Both the position numbers and the translations under genes were made by a program. Below the pieces are notes generated by a model. The model searched no databases and had not been told where the DNA came from. It saw only the letters and a program-made list of their open reading frames with translations. Shown one piece after another: positions 53,265-64,000 of a DNA stretch of 64,000 nucleotides (its first letter is position 1; each line of letters begins with the position of its first letter). Source of the DNA: Microbotryum violaceum (taxonomy: Eukaryota); contig CDLV01000017.1 of the NCBI GenBank assembly GCA_001244265.2, positions 310,001 through 374,000 of the forward strand. Reading direction: 5' to 3'.

Positions 53265-54224
53265 TCACTTCCCCGCGCCGGCCTCCCGACCTCCATAAGC
53301 GTCGTCCAACGCCTGCGTCAAATCGTCGACCGATAATCCCATCCCTTCTAAATCAGCGTACAGCTCTTTTAGACTTCGCGCTGTCGTTTTGCCCTCGCTG
53401 GGAGTCTCGTCCGTCGGAGTTGGTTCGTTCTTCGGATTCCTCGGCAAAGACGAAGATCCTTCGACCGGAGGTACATCCTTCTCGAGATCCCACACGTCCG
53501 CCAAAGCATCCTTGACGACCTCATCTATCACCAAACCCTGAGCCTTACCCTCTCCCCCCGCCTTGGTCGAATCCTTTGTCTCTTTCCCCTCCGGATCGGC
53601 CTGGGAATTCCGAGAAGGTAGAACTGCGCCAGTTCCACGCGAGGCCTGGGTGTGGCGCTTGTAATGGCTCGGGTCTTGAACCCGTCGCCGAGGCAAGAGG
53701 GGCGAGTGACGGGTCCTTAGCAACGGTGGCGCTTCTTCAATGGGTTCACGAGAGATGATTCGGATTGCCGAACTAGTGCAGTGAGTGATGGGATACGTGC
53801 GAGGTGTAGCCGATGCGAGATCATGCACGACGAAGTGGACCACGTCAGTCGGTCAGTCTCCCCCGTGATCCCCCTCTCCCGCGTATGCCCAAACTCACAT
53901 CAGCAACCCAACCACCGCCACCACCATCACCACCACCACCACGCCCTTCCCAGTCCTCGACCCAACCCACCTCCGCTTGCGCTTGCCCGTCTCCTCCTCG
54001 CTCGTCTGAATCGGGGGTGCCGACATGCCCGTCACGACGGCCTTCCTTGGTCTCCCCCTCTGTCCTTTCGGCGAGCGCGTGCGCAAACGTCCATTACTCC
54101 CTCCCCCACCTACTAGACTACTAAGATGCTCTCCCCTCGTTGTAGGTCCTTGAATCGTGATGGACGGGATTGGGCGAGTTGAACTGCTGGAGGCGGTTGA
54201 AGAGGAGGATGTGCTCGTGGTCAT
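53265..54224 (-). CDS. Hypothetical single-pass (type II-like) membrane protein
   Basis: ORF 53895-54224 splices (GTGAGT...CTAG) into ORF 53265-53843, completing a transmembrane segment GVVVVVMVVAVVGLLISAIRII after a basic stretch. Confidence 0.55.
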
Positions 54225-55027
54225 TTACGAAAAGGGCTCCGAGTCGCTGTCGAAGGGGGAGGAAGCAGAACTAGCAGAATCAAAGGGAACCCCCCCGAGT
54301 CACGGCGCTGCCGTCGGCTCGGTTCTTCGAGAATCAGGATCCAGAATACATAGTCGAGAATTCGGTCACGATCACCCCCGACCGAGTCGGCCGAGCGCGT
54401 CATGTGTGGCATTTCGAATTTCGACTTAATTTTTCGCTACACCTTCCATATGTTTAAAACCAAGCCATTAACGTGTGCAGAGCTTTCCGTCCATTGAGAG
54501 ACCAAAGAGGTCAAAGAGTCGAACCCTCTCCTCTTGGGGACAGCGTAGTCGTAGGCTAGGCGCCATAAGAATTTCTCGTAGCTGCTGGCTAGCCGACGGC
54601 TTTCGGGTAGGCTCGGATGCTTCAAAGTTTGGCCTTGTACACTGTTCAGATAGGCTCACCTGGCGGTACTCTAACCTTTTCTCTCGTTCCCTTCCCAATC
54701 TTTCGCATCGCTGCCGCACCTCACAATGAACGTCGCCAAACCTATGCACGCTCGCCGAAAGCATCGCGCTCATCGACTTCATCAGGCCTGGCGTTGAGTG
54801 ATGGTCGCTGCTCCAAAAAATGCAAGAGACTGATTGCTTTACACACCAACATGCGAGGCCAAAGGTGCACTGTGACTTCGTAGGATCGGTCAACGGCGAC
54901 GTGGGGAACCCTTGCAGGCTGTTCGAGGTCATCCTCTCCCCGATTCGGCCTCTCGTCTCCCAAGTTATCTGAGGCAAGCTTGTTGGGATCAACGATGATT
55001 CCGAAATGATCAACAAAAGAAGAAGAA

Positions 55028-55099
55028 CGGCTGGACCAGGAGTCGAACCTGGGTCGCTTCCATCAATCGGAAAAGCTTTGACCACTAAGCTATCCGGCC
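55028..55099 (-). tRNA. tRNA-like gene with an aberrant anticodon loop (probable pseudo-tRNA, possibly Cys-derived)
   Basis: GGCCGGA TA GCTT AGTGGTCA AAGC T TTTCC GATTGAT GGAAG CGAC CCAGG TTCGACT CCTGG TCCAGCC G. Full cloverleaf with A and B boxes, one acceptor-stem mismatch, loop lacking U33, and a T-run downstream. Confidence 0.8.
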
Positions 55100-55156
55100 C
55101 CTGATATCAGTGCAAGGTCTACTAACACCTTCAACAAAGCTCAGCGTCGAGTAAAC

Positions 55157-57818
55157 GAGCGCGGCTCGCTTTCACCGAAGCAGGGGCAAGGACTCGTTCG
55201 CCTGCTCTTCAAGCACCACAAGATCGGGGCCGATCGCGCCGAGCTCTCGTCGTACCGGCCCATCACCTTGCGCGAGTGCGACTACAAGCTCTTCACCAAG
55301 GTCTACGTTGCGCGACTCAACCACGTGCTGCCGGACCTGCTCCCACCGCAACAGCACGGCTTCGTCAAGGGCCGCCGATCGGCGGACGCGTCATTCCACC
55401 TGCGACTCTTGATCGAGGAGCTGGGCGCGCGCGGCACCGAGTTCCCTGACGCGGCGCTCTTGTCTCTAGACCAATCGTCGGCTTACGACCTCGTCGAGCA
55501 CGAATGGATCTTCGCCATCTTCGACGCTCTCGGCGCTCCTGCCGCCTTCCAACGCGTTCTGAGGATGCTCTACTCGGGTGACTCGACCACGGCGCGATAT
55601 ATCATCAACGGCTACTTGACTCCGCCGGTGCGGCTGACGTGTGGGCTCGGCCAAGGGGACCCGGCGTCGTCGTCGGTCTGGGATGTCGTGTTCCAGCCGT
55701 TCCTGGATGCTCTGCACCGTCGAGGCATCGCGCTGAACCTCTCGCTTCCTACCATTCACCCCTACCCACAGAGCCGCGCCATTACATCTCTTGCGTTTGC
55801 CGATGACGTCGTCGTCGCCGTCGCGGGCTCGGAGTCACTCACCTTGCTCGACGACCTGGCGCTCGACTGGAGGCTCGCAACCAATGGCCGGCTCAACACC
55901 GACAAGACCGTCGTACTACCCATCGGGTGTCGCTGGAAGGCTGGCGATCGTCCGCTCGTCGTCAAGGCCGAGGGCGAGTCGCTCGAGTGGATCGGCCTAT
56001 CTTTCGACCCCATCAGCAACACCGAACTCGCCAACGTGAATCTCGTCGCACGGCTCGAAGCGGTGCTCGATTCGGCACGGGACCGGGGGCTCACACACCA
56101 CACCCGAGCGTTCTACGTCAACCGATACGCCATTCCCAAGATTCTGCACATCCTCTCCGCCGACATCCCACCGCTCGAGGTCGTCAAGGAGCTTGATCGC
56201 ATTCTCGTCGACTTTGTCCGCGGCGGCAAGAGGAGGTCGTGCTATGGCAAGGACGTCGTCTTCACACCGAGGTTCAAGGGGGGTCATGGGGTCATGCGGA
56301 TGCAGGACGTCGTCGACTCGGTTGCGGCACGCGTCTGGGATGTGCTTCTTGGCGGTTCGGATGCGATCTGGCAGGGACTTGCGCGCGCGGCAATTGTACG
56401 AGCCCATCCCGCCCCCGACTTTGACTTGGCAACTGATGCGTGGCCTTGCGACTACACTCCGATCCGAACCGATCTACACCCAAGATGGCAGGCCGTGCTG
56501 AAGGTACCATCGACGCACAATGCGCAAGTCAAGCCGAGGACGTTGACGCTCGCGAATCTTCTCGCCCTTCCGATCAAGTTGCACACCCTTCACTACCTAC
56601 CGGGAGCACCAGCTGTGTCGCGATCACCCTACGACGCCGATCATGCTGCGTTTGCCATTTACGCCAAGGTAGCGGACCTGTTTCGACGCGAGCTGTACCC
56701 GGGCGGGGCTTTCATCTCTGGACGCCGCCGACGGATGTGGTCGTCAGCAACAGCGAATACGATCAACGGGGCCGCCCACAACGAGAGCACATCGTGGCAT
56801 GGTACCGACATGCGATCAATCGATTGAGGTTCACACCAATAGCTCAACCGGTGGCGGCAGTACGAATCAACGGGCCTCCCCGAGTCCACCCCAGATCCGA
56901 GGTCCGCCCACCACCCCGCTCGAGTCGATCCTGCCCCATCCGATCGACCCGCCGCAGCGCCTTCCGAGACCGGCTCTCCCAGACCAATCAACACAATACA
57001 ACTTGCTCAGCATGGATCGGCCATACACCATCCGTCGCGTCCGCCGAGTCTTGAATGCAAAGGCCTTCACCGACACGATCGGTTTCAGGGACTCGCTGCA
57101 GCCCGACGATCTCAAGGGATTCTGGAAGGGGGTCAACTCGAAGGCATTGACGGCGAGGGAACGCGAGGTGTGGTTCAAGCTCGTCAGGAACTTCACCCCG
57201 ACTCGGAGTCTGCAGTTTCATCAAAAGCACGACGACTCGCCCGCGTGCCTCGTCTGTGGAGCGCCCAAGGACGATCGGGAGCACTACTTCTTCGACTGCG
57301 TTGACTCTGGGAACGTTTGGATCGCGGCAAGGAGCGTGCTCTACGACGCACTGGGGCTCGACACGATCGACAACACGCATTACACGGCTGTTCAACGCAT
57401 GTTCGGACTTCCGAAGCTCAAGGCCAGTCTGCGCGATCAAGAAGGAGCGGGGAGGACGATCGAAATATTCACCGGGCTGGTCTTGGAGATGATCAGCAGC
57501 GGGAGGTGGGGGATGCAGAAGTGGGGGACGAGGATGGAGGGTGCTGGGAGGAGGAGGATCATCTTGGAGGAGAGGTTGAAGCTGAGGGCGGGAGGAGCTT
57601 GGCTCTCTTCTTCTCTCTCTCATTCGTCTCCTGGGGGGAGCAACCGCTTGGCTAGGGCATTTGAATCCGAATCTCGGATTGGTGGACTTGGCTCGTTTCT
57701 CGCACATTTGCGGGCGGTTTGTGTTATCATCGTCGACTTCCATCTAGTTTTTCCGTAGGCCAAAACAGGGGGAACAGGAACTGGGGGCAATATGATGAAC
57801 GTTTTCTACAAAAAAAAA
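55157..57818 (+). mobile_element. L1/Tx1-like non-LTR retrotransposon, copy A (5'-truncated at RT start, frameshifted, poly(A) tail)
   Basis: [41 protein letters not shown], catalytic FADD, C-terminal CLVC...HYFFDC knuckle; A9 at 57810-57818. Confidence 0.93.
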
Positions 57819-57828
57819 CCCGTGCACG

Positions 57829-60800
57829 TTTTTTTTTTTTTTGTAGAACTTGTTCATCATATTGCCCCCAATTCCTGTTCCCCTGATTGGCCTACGGAAA
57901 AACTAGATGGAAGTCGACGATGATAACACAAACCGCCCGCAAGATGCGAGAAACGGGCCGGTGTCCACCAATCCGATACTTGGGATTCAAGTGCCCCAGC
58001 CAAGCGGTTGCTCCCCCCAGGAGACGAATGAGAGAGAGAAGATGAGAGAGAGAGAAAGAGAAAGAGTAATAAAATAATTGACTAACGACAAGAGACCCAC
58101 CCCGCCGTCACTTCCCAACTCGGTCGAGACAAAGACAAGAGAGCGACTGCGCAGCTACCCTGACCCGCGAAGTCCCAAGGCTATGCTCGGTCACAACAAG
58201 ACGCGGTGGAGGCCCCTCAAAACCTCCACCTCAGCAGTCCCTGGCCCCTCAAAGCCGACTTTCTGCCTGTGTCTGCTGATCCCTCCCTTGACTCAGAACC
58301 CCGAAGCCAAAGAGCGCGAGTCACCGTCGAGTCAATCTCAAATCGCGAGCCGGTCCATGAGCAACGAAGGCAGACCTGTAATAGATGAAAGATGAAAGCA
58401 AGATATTTAGTATACAGTGTTTTGTTGGAAGATGAAGCGTGATGGTGTGTGTGTGTGGGGTGTGGTGGGGGGAAATCGAACCCAGCCTCTACTGCCCTCG
58501 CCCGCCCCTTGCTCCTCCCGCCCTCAACTTCATCCTCTCCTCCAGTACCACTCTCCTCCTCTCCACGCTTTCCATCCTCGTCCCGTGCTTCTGCATCCAC
58601 CATCTCCCACTGCTGATCATTTCCAAAACCATCCCCGTGAACATCTCGATCGTCCTGCCCGCCCCTTCCTGTTCGCTGAGCTTGGCCTTAAGCTTGGGGA
58701 GGCCAAAGAGCCGTTGCAGTGTCGTGTACTGGGCGTCCTCAATCGTGTCGCACCCGAGTGCGTCGCAGAGCACGCCCCTTTCCGCGATCCAGACATTCCG
58801 CGAGTCAACGCAGCCGAAAAAGTAGTGGTCGGTGTCGTCCACCGGCGCTTCGCAGACGAGGCACGCGGGAGAAGTGTCGTGATTCTGTTGGTGTTGCAGC
58901 TTGCGCGTCGGGGTGAAGCGGAGAATCAGCTTGAACCAAACTTCCCTCTCCCTCGCCGTCAGTGCCTTCGAGTTGACCGCCTTCCAAAAGCTCCTGAGGT
59001 CGTCCGGCTGCGGTGGTCCCTTGAGCCCGAGCGTGTTGGTAAAGGCCTTCGCGTTCAGGACCCGGCGGATGCGACGGATGGTGTACGGTCGAGCCATGTT
59101 CAGCAGCTTGTACTGGCTCGCCTGCTGTGGAAGCACCGGGTCCGGAAGGCGCTGCTCCATTGCGAAGCGGGCCACGGGCTTGGGGAGAATCGCCTCGAGT
59201 GGTGCGCTGGTGCCGATCCGGGGAGGCACGTTGAGCCGTCCTGCCGCCACCGCCACCGCCAAGGGCGTGTTCTTGTGTCGATCGACAGTGAACCGGTACC
59301 AGGCCGCGATTGCCAGTCGCTGCGGGAGCCCGCGTCGATCGTACTCGCTGTTGTCGCCGAGCACATCCGCCGGCGGCGTCCAAAGGTGAAACCCCCCACC
59401 CGCATACAACTCGCGCCGGTAAAGATCCGCCACCTTCGGGTAGCCCTGGAGACGAAGTTAGTCAGGTATATGAACCGCGTCGATGGTCTGTCTCCCTCTG
59501 ATGGGGGTGTGGAGGCTGCCGAGCAAGGTGGGAAGCGCGAGCAGGTTCGCGGTGGTCAAGGTCCTCGGGTTGACCTGTGCGTCTTGCTGTTTCGGAACCC
59601 CCAATGCTGCTCGCCATCGGGGATGGAGGTCGCTGGGGATGGGAGTGGATGGATGTGGCCAGAGATCGGTGGCCAGGTCGAGGTCGGACTGAGCTCGCTG
59701 GAGTGCCGCGCGCGCAAGTCCTTGCCAGATCGCGCCCGAGCCGCCGAGAAGAACGTCCCAGATCCGTGCCGCAACCGCGTCCACGACGTCCTGCATCCTG
59801 ATCACCCCGAGTCCCCCTTGAGCTTGGCTGTGAACACGATATCTCTGCCGTAGCTGGTCCTGCCCTTGCCCCCACGGACGAAATCGACGAGCATGTCATC
59901 GAGCTTCTTGACGACTTCGGGCGGCGGGATGTCGGCTGCAAGGAAGTGCAGGATCTTGGGGATGGCGTACCCATTGACGTAAAAGGCACGGGTGTGGTGT
60001 GTGAGCCAGCGATGCTGAACCCCTTCCAGCGTCGCCTCGAGGCGTTCGATGAGATTCGCGTAGGCGAGTTCGGTGTCGCCGCTCGGGTCGAAGGGGAGGC
60101 CGATCCACTCGAGCGACTCGGGTCCCAGCGGCGTCCGATCGGTAGGACGACCGTCTTGTCCGTGTTGAGCCGGCCATTCGTTGCATGCCTCCAGTCGAGC
60201 GCCAGATCGTCGAGCAAGGTGAGTGACTCCGAGCCCGCGACGGCGACGACGACGTCATCGGCAAACGCAAGAGATGTAATGGCGCGGCTCTGTGGGTAGG
60301 GGTGAATGGTAGGAAGCGAGAGGTTCAGCGCGATGCCTCGACGGTGCAGAGCATCCAGGAACGGCTGGAACACGACATCCCAGACCGACGACGACGCCGG
60401 GTCCCCTTGGCCGAGCCCACACGTCAGCCGCACCGGCGGAGTCAAGTAGCCGTTGATGATATATCGCGCCGTGGTCGAGTCACCCGAGTAGAGCATCCTC
60501 AGAACGCGTTGGAAGGCGGCAGGAGCGCCGAGAGCGTCGAAGATGGCGAAGATCCATTCGTGCTCGACGAGGTCGTAAGCCGACGATTGGTCTAGAGACA
60601 AGAGCGCCGCGTCAGGGAACTCGGTGCCGCGCGCGCCCAGCTCCTCGATCAGGAGACGAAGGTGTAGTGCAGCGTCAGCCGATCGGCGGTCCTTGACGAA
60701 ACCGTGCTGCTGCGGCGGGAGGAGATCGGGTAGAATCTGGTTCAAACGGGCGACATAGACCTTGGTAAAGATCTTGTAATCGCACTCGCGCAGGGTGATC

Positions 60801-60998
60801 GGCCGGTACGACGAAAGTTCGGCGCGATCGGCATTCTTCTTGTGTCGCTTGAAGATGAGGCGCACGAGTCCTTGGCCCTGCTTGGGAGAGAGTGAGCCTC
60901 GCTCTATCATCGCGTTGTAGGCCTTGGTCAGCACCTTGGCCCACGCCTTGGGTGCGGTCTGGTAGAGTTCGTAGGGCACGCCGACGGTCCCGGCGATC
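57829..60998 (-). mobile_element. L1/Tx1-like non-LTR retrotransposon, copy B (same family as A, 5'-truncated, frameshifted)
   Basis: Same RT motifs and CLVC...HYFFGC knuckle; ~650-nt 3' UTR; T14 at 57829-57842; deletion and frameshift near 60120. Confidence 0.93.
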
Positions 60999-61006
60999 GT
61001 AGGTGG

Positions 61007-61325
61007 TGTCTTTGTCTCGACCGAGTTGGGAAGTGACGGCGGGGTGGGTCTCTTGTCGTTAGTCAATTATTTTATTACTCTTTCTCTTTCTCTCTCTCTC
61101 TTCTTCTCTCTCTCATCTTTTCTCTCTCATTCGTCTCCTGGGGGGAGCAACCGCTTGGCTGGGGCACTTGAATCCCAAGTATCGGATTGGTGTACACCGG
61201 CCCGTTTCTCGCATCTTGCGGGCGGTTTGTGTTATCATCGTCGACTTCCATCTAGTTTTTCCGTAGGCCAATCAGGGGAACAGGAATTGGGGGCAATATG
61301 ATGAACAAGTTCTACAAAAAAAAAA
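61007..61325 (+). mobile_element. Severely truncated 3'-UTR-only copy D of the A/B family with poly(A)
   Basis: Reverse complement of 57829-58137 apart from a substitution and CT-microsatellite differences; A10 at 61316-61325. Confidence 0.9.
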
Positions 61326-61333
61326 GGGGCACT

Positions 61334-63609
<2,276 letters not shown>

Positions 63610-64000
63610 GGGCACTCGTACTGATATTGCCACAATTATACTTCCGACCCCCATCTTTGCCACTTTTCTGCCTTTCCGATTGCAGTCGCACGGACCCTTG
63701 CGCCGAACCTGGAAGCGAGTCCGACCCCTATGCAGCGAGTCACCGCCTCCCATCTGCTGCCGAGCCCCTGGCTTGAGAACAGGCTGACTCTTTTGATGTG
63801 AAACTATGCTTCATTTCCAGTCGTGCCTGAACAAGTTCATACGCGAGCCTAGAGGACCTGGCGGAGTGTAAGTGTGTTGAACCCTGTCCTCGCGTCAGAG
63901 TGTCCTCAGAATCGTAGTACAAAGTTGAACTGTATCGCTCACATTCTCATTTGTGATTTCTGCAGTACCGTCGCCCCAAGCCCGCGATGTCTGCAAGACG

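Follow-up and report, generated by a model that had tools for sequence, protein, structure and literature searches.

Some non-LTR retrotransposons (LINEs) are directed to tRNA genes. The table of a 2018 review holds four such elements, all of them from dictyostelids, and gives distances to the tRNA gene of 40–54 bp for TRE5 and 39–64 bp for NLTR-B (PMC5911963). TRE5-A (DRE) of Dictyostelium discoideum is described as integrating about 48 bp upstream of tRNA genes and as requiring a functional B box, and its ORF1 product as binding subunits of TFIIIB; it also integrates at loci that have A and B boxes without other tRNA context (PMC5391098). NLTR-B of Polysphondylium pallidum is unrelated to the TRE elements, yet it too is reported upstream of tRNA genes, within the range given above (PMC5006619, PMC5911963), and is thus a precedent for the convergent gain of a TRE5-type geometry.

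From fungi, an L1-clade LINE has been reported in Microbotryum (PMC3956500), and Zorro3 of Candida albicans, a LINE of the same clade, is described as integrating at poly(A) tracts (PMC7175516). A literature search of incomplete coverage turned up no fungal LINE described as directed to genes transcribed by RNA polymerase III (Pol III). There is another kind of element that has to be introduced here, i.e., the Helenus/TRIMp3 retrotransposons (Kojima 2024, PMC10886601), which are described as having a short LTR and an internal tRNA-like sequence with A and B boxes that is mostly non-functional as a tRNA. According to the same survey, the target duplication of the fungal members is 5 bp long and solo LTRs occur frequently; the survey reports none from Microbotryum.

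Here, a locus of Microbotryum is described at which a nest of four dead LINE pieces (A to D) stands beside a mobile unit of 156 bp that bears a tRNA-like module. The locus lies in a stretch of 64,000 nucleotides, the whole of which was analysed and is called the window (64 kb). Compared by layout, the nest resembles TRE5-A: an APE-type LINE is found upstream of an A/B-box Pol III unit and turns its 5′ end towards it. For TRE5-A, loci with A and B boxes but without tRNA function are reported to suffice as targets (PMC5391098), and nests form at targets. TRE5 differs in being strictly tRNA-associated at its 40–54 bp (PMC5911963), whereas at the Microbotryum locus the junctions are at 57–70 bp, one copy lies antisense and an ORF1 is missing. 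The range of 57–70 bp overlaps that of NLTR-B, which comes from an amoebozoan, has an RNase H domain and can be likened to the Microbotryum LINEs by layout, not by sequence. The behaviour of Zorro3 matches the positions of two of the pieces (B behind A, D behind C), but does not account for a GC-rich primary entry or for the nearness of the nest to the A/B-box unit.

Layout of the locus

The original prediction had a LINE cluster beginning about 57 bp upstream of a tRNA-like gene, with the 5′ end of the cluster facing the gene, and this description holds. ARAGORN and Rfam agree on 55028–55099 for the tRNA-like gene, which therefore starts at 55099 on the minus strand. Repeat finding, self-BLAST and a jump in identity all place the start of the homology between copies A and B at 55157, A being on the plus strand. 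Left of 55157, A and B share 28% identity over 60 nt, and right of it 82% over 60 nt; thus, the 5′ boundary of A is sharp. The 57-nt gap between 55099 and LINE A is the sum of 37 nt of the unit's arm, the target duplication of 5 nt and 15 native nucleotides. The suggestion that the boundary of A could be up to 45 bp closer to the tRNA-like gene is rejected on this composition, since the 57 nt are unit arm, duplication and native letters that are also present in run X14 (see below). All features are listed in Table 1.

Table 1. Coordinates in the window of the mobile unit, its tRNA-like module and the pieces of the LINE nest.
Feature	Positions	Strand	Basis
5-bp target duplication, left copy, AAGCT	54976–54980	.	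repeated at 55137–55141; single in empty X14 allele
156-bp mobile unit, solo-LTR type, bears the tRNA-like module	54981–55136	-	termini, length, absence in X14
tRNA-like module	55028–55099	-	ARAGORN, Rfam RF00005, A and B boxes; inside the 156-bp unit
5-bp target duplication, right copy, AAGCT	55137–55141	.	letters match 54976–54980
native intergenic DNA, 15 nt, from unit to LINE A; ends in AAAC	55142–55156	.	same letters open the 28-letter stretch of X14
LINE A: 5′-truncated ORF2 (RT, zinc-finger region), 3′ UTR, A9 tail	55157–57818	+	repeats, self-BLAST, Pfam
10-nt spacer from A tail to B tail: CC and palindrome CGTGCACG	57819–57828	.	compared with native X14 letters
LINE B: T14 run (poly(A) tail), longer 3′ UTR, ORF2, 5′-truncated	57829–60999	-	self-BLAST; contig ends
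7-nt filler from B 5′ end to C 5′ end	61000–61006	.	loose end at 60999; C start at 61007
LINE C: 319-nt 3′-UTR fragment, B type, A10 tail	61007–61325	+	95% identical to 57833–58137
native letters GGGGCACT, left target duplication of D	61326–61333	.	GGGCACT again at 63610–63616 and in empty allele
LINE D: second family, 5′-truncated, A8 tail (63602–63609)	about 61334–63609	+	tblastn; loose contig end at 61350
right target duplication of D, GGGCACT, then native right flank	63610–63616	.	X14 contig resumes at 63622

The rest of the window is occupied by housekeeping genes, including those for Not1, HSP90, eIF5 and a ubiquitin-conjugating enzyme. Among the 92 ORFs scanned, none outside 55.1–63 kb had a transposon domain: in one set there were three ORFs with such a domain out of 38, all inside the nest, and in the other set there were none out of 54. 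When seven LINE ORFs were compared with the window by tblastn, the matches were confined to 55082–62618. The chance of a nest boundary lying at most 60 bp upstream of the tRNA-like gene, head to head, can be estimated, roughly and post hoc, as 60/64000 x 1/2 = 5e-4.

The LINE pieces and their families

The Pfam domains RVT_1 and zf-RVT were found in the LINE copies of the window. There were 104 longer relatives with E < 1e-10, of which the closest were Microbotryum gene models that were 92–96% identical to ORF2 of copy A. The full-length relatives P0029 and P0030 carry PF03372 (Exo_endo_phos, APE), PF00078 and PF13966. Judged by these domains, the LINE of the nest is L1-like in architecture, with an APE endonuclease, an RT and a zinc-finger ORF2 across its relatives. 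Copy D has about 35% amino-acid identity with A, and 95% identity with the protein P0056. By depth, X1 has about 13 LINE copies (RT region) to more than 100 (3′ end); any association with the tRNA-like unit can thus be at most a preference, not a rule. Several Microbotryum gene models (P0014, P0015, P0037 and P0084) fuse a LINE RT with Copia integrase and RT domains, which points to frequent nesting of LINE and Copia copies in these genomes, on the same strand.

In three of the four copies (A, C and D) the 5′ end faces the tRNA-like gene, and B has the opposite orientation. The 5′ end of B is at 60999, where the multi-copy contigs of three runs lose their match to the window. About 460 nt of the 3′ region (58049–58510) are present in B and partly in C but not in A, and contigs of X11 have a further 3′ variant that joins 57602 to 58418; thus, several length variants of the 3′ UTR coexist in the LINE family of A and B. 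At 56704, 59812 and 60980, A and B are each without single bases that are kept by the multi-copy contigs in all four runs, and these missing bases are the cause of the frameshifts in ORF2 of A and B.

The mobile unit and its tRNA-like module

The unit starts with TG at 54981 and ends with CA at 55136, and has a 5-bp terminal inverted repeat (TGTTG/CAACA). In the window there is an AAGCT on both sides of the unit, as against one AAGCT in the empty allele of X14. The tRNA-like core of the unit is at 21–48x single-copy depth in each of the four runs, X14 included, i.e., the unit is present at about 20–50 copies per genome. Given this depth, and given that the presence or absence of the unit at the site differs between strains, the unit belongs to a multi-copy, mobile family. 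It looks like a solo LTR with a Pol III promoter module, of the Helenus/TRIMp3 kind, with which it shares, by description, the TG...CA termini, the 5-bp duplication, the A and B boxes inside and the multi-copy state. In contrast to the full elements, it stands here as a solo unit alone: blastn found no second copy in the 64-kb window, and paired LTRs, a PBS and a PPT are absent from it. A 31-nt piece of the unit had no exact match among the metagenome contigs scanned, and a tblastn comparison of 106 proteins with the unit found none among these gene models that reads through a unit copy.

Two other classes of element were considered for the unit. If it were a SINE, there should not be 37 nt upstream of the tRNA-like start inside the unit, nor should an A-tail be missing; the TG...CA ends and the 5-bp duplication also oppose this reading, which is rejected. 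A MITE (DNA transposon) is unlikely given the 5-bp duplication and the TG/CA ends.

The tRNA-like module is the sole tRNA called by ARAGORN in the window, as tRNA-Gln with anticodon TTG. Its match to Rfam RF00005 scores 49 bits against a gathering score of 29, and there was no other Rfam match above threshold in the 64 kb. The A box (TAGCTTAGTGG) and the B box (GGTTCGACTCC) agree exactly with the consensus, as nothing else in the window does; a T-run (terminator) follows 9 nt downstream. In all of the 25 contigs that cover 55064 (tRNA position 36), i.e., 10 from X1, five from X6, four from X11 and six from X14, this position is T. The anticodon of the unit family is therefore TTA, and TTG is private to the window: a private T-to-C change (plus strand) at 55064 turns the "suppressor-like" TTA into TTG, and the Gln call depends on this change. 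In tRNA anticodon loops, U33 is nearly universal. The loop of the module is GAUUGAU, with A at position 33, and one acceptor pair is C-A; the anticodon loop is defective.

An empty allele and the comparison of strains

Contigs of four public runs were compared with positions 53400–64000 of the window: X1 (organism A), X6 (organism B), and X11 and X14 (both organism C). In X14, position 54980 is joined to 63622 by a contig of 6,469 nt with single-copy depth (28.8), and only 28 letters separate the two. These letters correspond to 55142–55156 of the window (15 letters), GTGC (four letters) and 63610–63618 of the window (nine letters). Thus, at this site X14 is without the whole 8.5-kb LINE nest and without 54981–55141, from which it follows that the unit and the LINE nest are both later arrivals, and that all LINE junctions map within the 28 native letters.

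In X1 and X11, single-copy contigs of the left flank reach into the unit, to 55030 and 55063, and contigs of the right flank start inside copy D at 63558, so in both runs the unit and copy D are at the site. The left-flank contig of X6 ends at 55017, which is 37 nt into the unit, at about 5x depth, and the start of the unit alone is seen there. No intermediate allele was seen at the site among the contigs of X1, X6, X11 and X14. Since the split from the X14 lineage, one intergenic site has thus gained a unit and four 5′-truncated L1-like LINE pieces of two families.

At another copy of the unit in X14, its last base (55136) is joined directly to the 3′ UTR of a B-type LINE at 58423, in a contig with a depth of 44.5 in which the shorter side of the joint is 52 letters. 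This joint is ambiguous: it could be a LINE that was cut at the edge of the unit, or a unit inside the tail of a LINE. A joint in X11 leads from 55134 via 30 other letters to 63520; with one side of only 25 letters, it is too short to be informative and was left out of account. In the left flank of X14, 54425–54604 contains a small inverted stretch and a 51-nt replacement. Divergence in this region is 4–6%, compared with 1.6% further left, which implies that it is probably non-coding intergenic DNA.

Entry points and order of insertion

Native coordinates were counted from the tRNA-like +1 (55099). The end of the unit is then at -37, its duplication at -38 to -42, and the 28 native letters at about -43 to -70. 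The four LINE pieces (A+, B-, C+ and D+), from two families, entered a native zone of about 15 bp that is 15–28 bp past the edge of the unit, i.e., 53–70 bp upstream of the tRNA-like +1.

The 5′ junction of A comes after AAAC (-57/-58), and the letter C follows the A tail. This fits a possible 4-bp duplication of AAAC with a bottom-strand nick at TTT/A (T|AAAC), at about -53/-54; TTT/A is an ordinary nick site of the L1 type. The tail of C is followed by GGGG-CACT, and GGG precedes C's side of the nest, which indicates a 3-bp duplication and a nick beside GGG (|GGG) at about -62 to -64. This GC-rich entry point is unlike an A/T-driven nick. The tail of B, read in the direction of B, is followed by C-GTGCAC-GGG. 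Of the two possible readings, this one appears to be the closer to the native AAAC-GTGC-GGG, a 2-nt AC indel aside. On its two sides D has GGGCACT plus A's, which indicates that it was inserted at the tail of C.

Insertion into A-runs fits two of the four copies (B and D), whereas A is at AAAC and C is at GGG. At least two of the entries, those of A and C, are primary, and neither lies in the tail of the other copy. The simplest history has two primary entries, one by A at an ordinary L1-type site and one by C 8–10 bp away at a GC-rich site, and two additions that look tail-seeded, B behind A and D behind C.

The orientation of B and exchange between A and B

The tail-to-tail junction of A and B (57810–57842) reads A9-CC-CGTGCACG-T14, which is palindromic almost throughout, and forms the middle of an inverted repeat of 2.4 kb; such a structure could be unstable. 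The spacer within it is best taken as inverted native target DNA, a reading that depends on few bases because the spacer is CC plus an 8-bp palindrome.

Copies A and B are 78% identical overall, but in 55357–55956 (A) and 60105–60704 (B) they are 95–100% identical over about 0.4–0.6 kb: identity is 95–100% over 55357–55756 (100% over 55557–55756), against 57–83% in the neighbouring stretches on either side. In 60206–60272, copy B of the window differs at eight positions from its own multi-copy family. To judge from these letters, the tract looks like the result of gene conversion between the inverted arms at the locus. Given such exchange of sequence between A and B, the middle of the nest could have been turned round by recombination of the two inverted arms. 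The orientation of B may alternatively be due to direct antisense insertion, or to both ends of one staggered break priming B and C. Classical twin priming does not explain the head-to-head pair of B and C, as B has a poly(A) tail of its own; a variant of twin priming in which both nicked ends prime is conceivable.

Why LINEs accumulated at this site

Five insertions within 43 bp, with the other 55 kb of the gene-dense window free of transposon domains, are not random. Our best explanation is that these LINEs prefer to enter at the upstream edge of a Pol III complex, as do TRE5 and NLTR-B, and that stacking on poly(A) tails came on top; we give it a little less than an even chance of being correct. 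TFIIIC and TFIIIB would assemble on the tRNA-like module, and the integration complex of the LINE would favour the DNA at the upstream edge of the Pol III complex. Nicks would be made at the two points 8–10 bp apart, with the 5′ end of the element facing the module, as for TRE5 and NLTR-B. The poly(A) tail of a LINE so placed would draw more copies (B behind A, D behind C), and exchange between the inverted arms of A and B would rearrange the centre of the nest. Tethering of the LINEs by TFIIIB is thus inferred. Evidence for the preference is provided by the empty allele, which puts all LINE junctions within the 28 native letters, the exact A and B boxes with a T-run terminator, the two primary entries, the two LINE families, the lack of transposon domains elsewhere among the ORFs scanned and the reported integration of TRE5-A at A/B-box loci. 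Against it are the single locus, the copy number of the LINE families (about 13 to more than 100 by depth), the antisense orientation of B, the fit of half of the pile to poly(A) seeding, the ordinary L1 nick at the site of A, and the LINE 5′ junctions at 57–70 bp upstream of the tRNA-like start, slightly beyond those of TRE5. Poly(A) seeding explains half of the LINE pile, but leaves unexplained the two primary entries one helical turn apart, one of which is GC-rich, and their position 15–28 bp from the Pol III module. A Pol III-proximal landing preference is the most economical single cause of the geometry. The original prediction had proposed a Pol III-proximal safe haven as the reason for the hotspot: the distance, the orientation and the accumulation of several LINEs agree with this, but the target has turned out to be a mobile LTR-type unit rather than a cellular tRNA gene, the positions of B behind A and D behind C are explained by poly(A) tails, and B lies in the opposite orientation.

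The geometry might also have arisen without any targeting, if the first LINE nicked an ordinary TTT/A site by chance in a tolerant intergenic region of 1 kb and stacking followed. The later LINEs would have been attracted by poly(A) tails and by a spot that, being already disrupted, was harmless to enter, and the LTR-type unit would have landed 15 bp from there by coincidence or because insertions are tolerated at this spot. The tail junction of B and the duplication of D do fit insertion at the A-run of an earlier copy, and integration at poly(A) tracts is reported for the L1-clade element Zorro3 (PMC7175516, PMC3956500). However, the 3′ junction of C is at GGG, outside any A-run, the primary entries are 8–10 bp apart though A offers 2.6 kb of equally harmless target, and the crowding of insertions into 43 bp of a window otherwise without transposon domains speaks against chance; we regard this explanation as less likely, but as a serious rival. 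It is improbable, in our opinion, that the dependence is reversed or shared, i.e., that the integrase of the unit prefers LINE ends or that both elements prefer the same open or bent spot in this promoter-like region. The joint of 55136 to 58423 in X14 could be a unit integrated into the tail of a LINE, but can also be read as a LINE truncated at the edge of the unit, and the events that are repeated at the present site are entries of LINEs, not of the unit. We know of no mechanism that aims a Copia-type integrase at the edges of LINEs. Finally, both ARAGORN and Rfam call a tRNA, as would be expected if a resident cellular tRNA-Gln gene were the safe-haven target. This is scarcely credible, since the X14 allele lacks the TG...CA unit, with its 5-bp duplication, in which the gene sits, the core of the unit is at 21–48x depth, the family anticodon is TTA, and position 33 is A, not U.

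The preference for the upstream edge of the Pol III complex can be extended from this site to a general proposal: the L1-like LINEs of Microbotryum home to that edge, and a mobile tRNA-like LTR unit carries the landing pad with it, thereby seeding nests. We put this forward tentatively, as possible rather than probable.

Significance

Whether or not the LINEs were targeted, the history of a fungal LINE nest can be read from the empty allele to the exact base. If the assignment of the unit is true, the Helenus/TRIMp3 kind would be extended to a lineage in which the survey reported none. If the targeting reading is true, this would be the first LINE outside Amoebozoa that homes to the edge of Pol III complexes, and an independent origin of the safe-haven strategy; the fungal case would be in a plant pathogen that is amenable to genetics and for which population genomic data are plentiful. 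Moreover, if a mobile A/B-box module attracts LINEs, then one transposon would decide where another accumulates, and may itself have made the landing pad.
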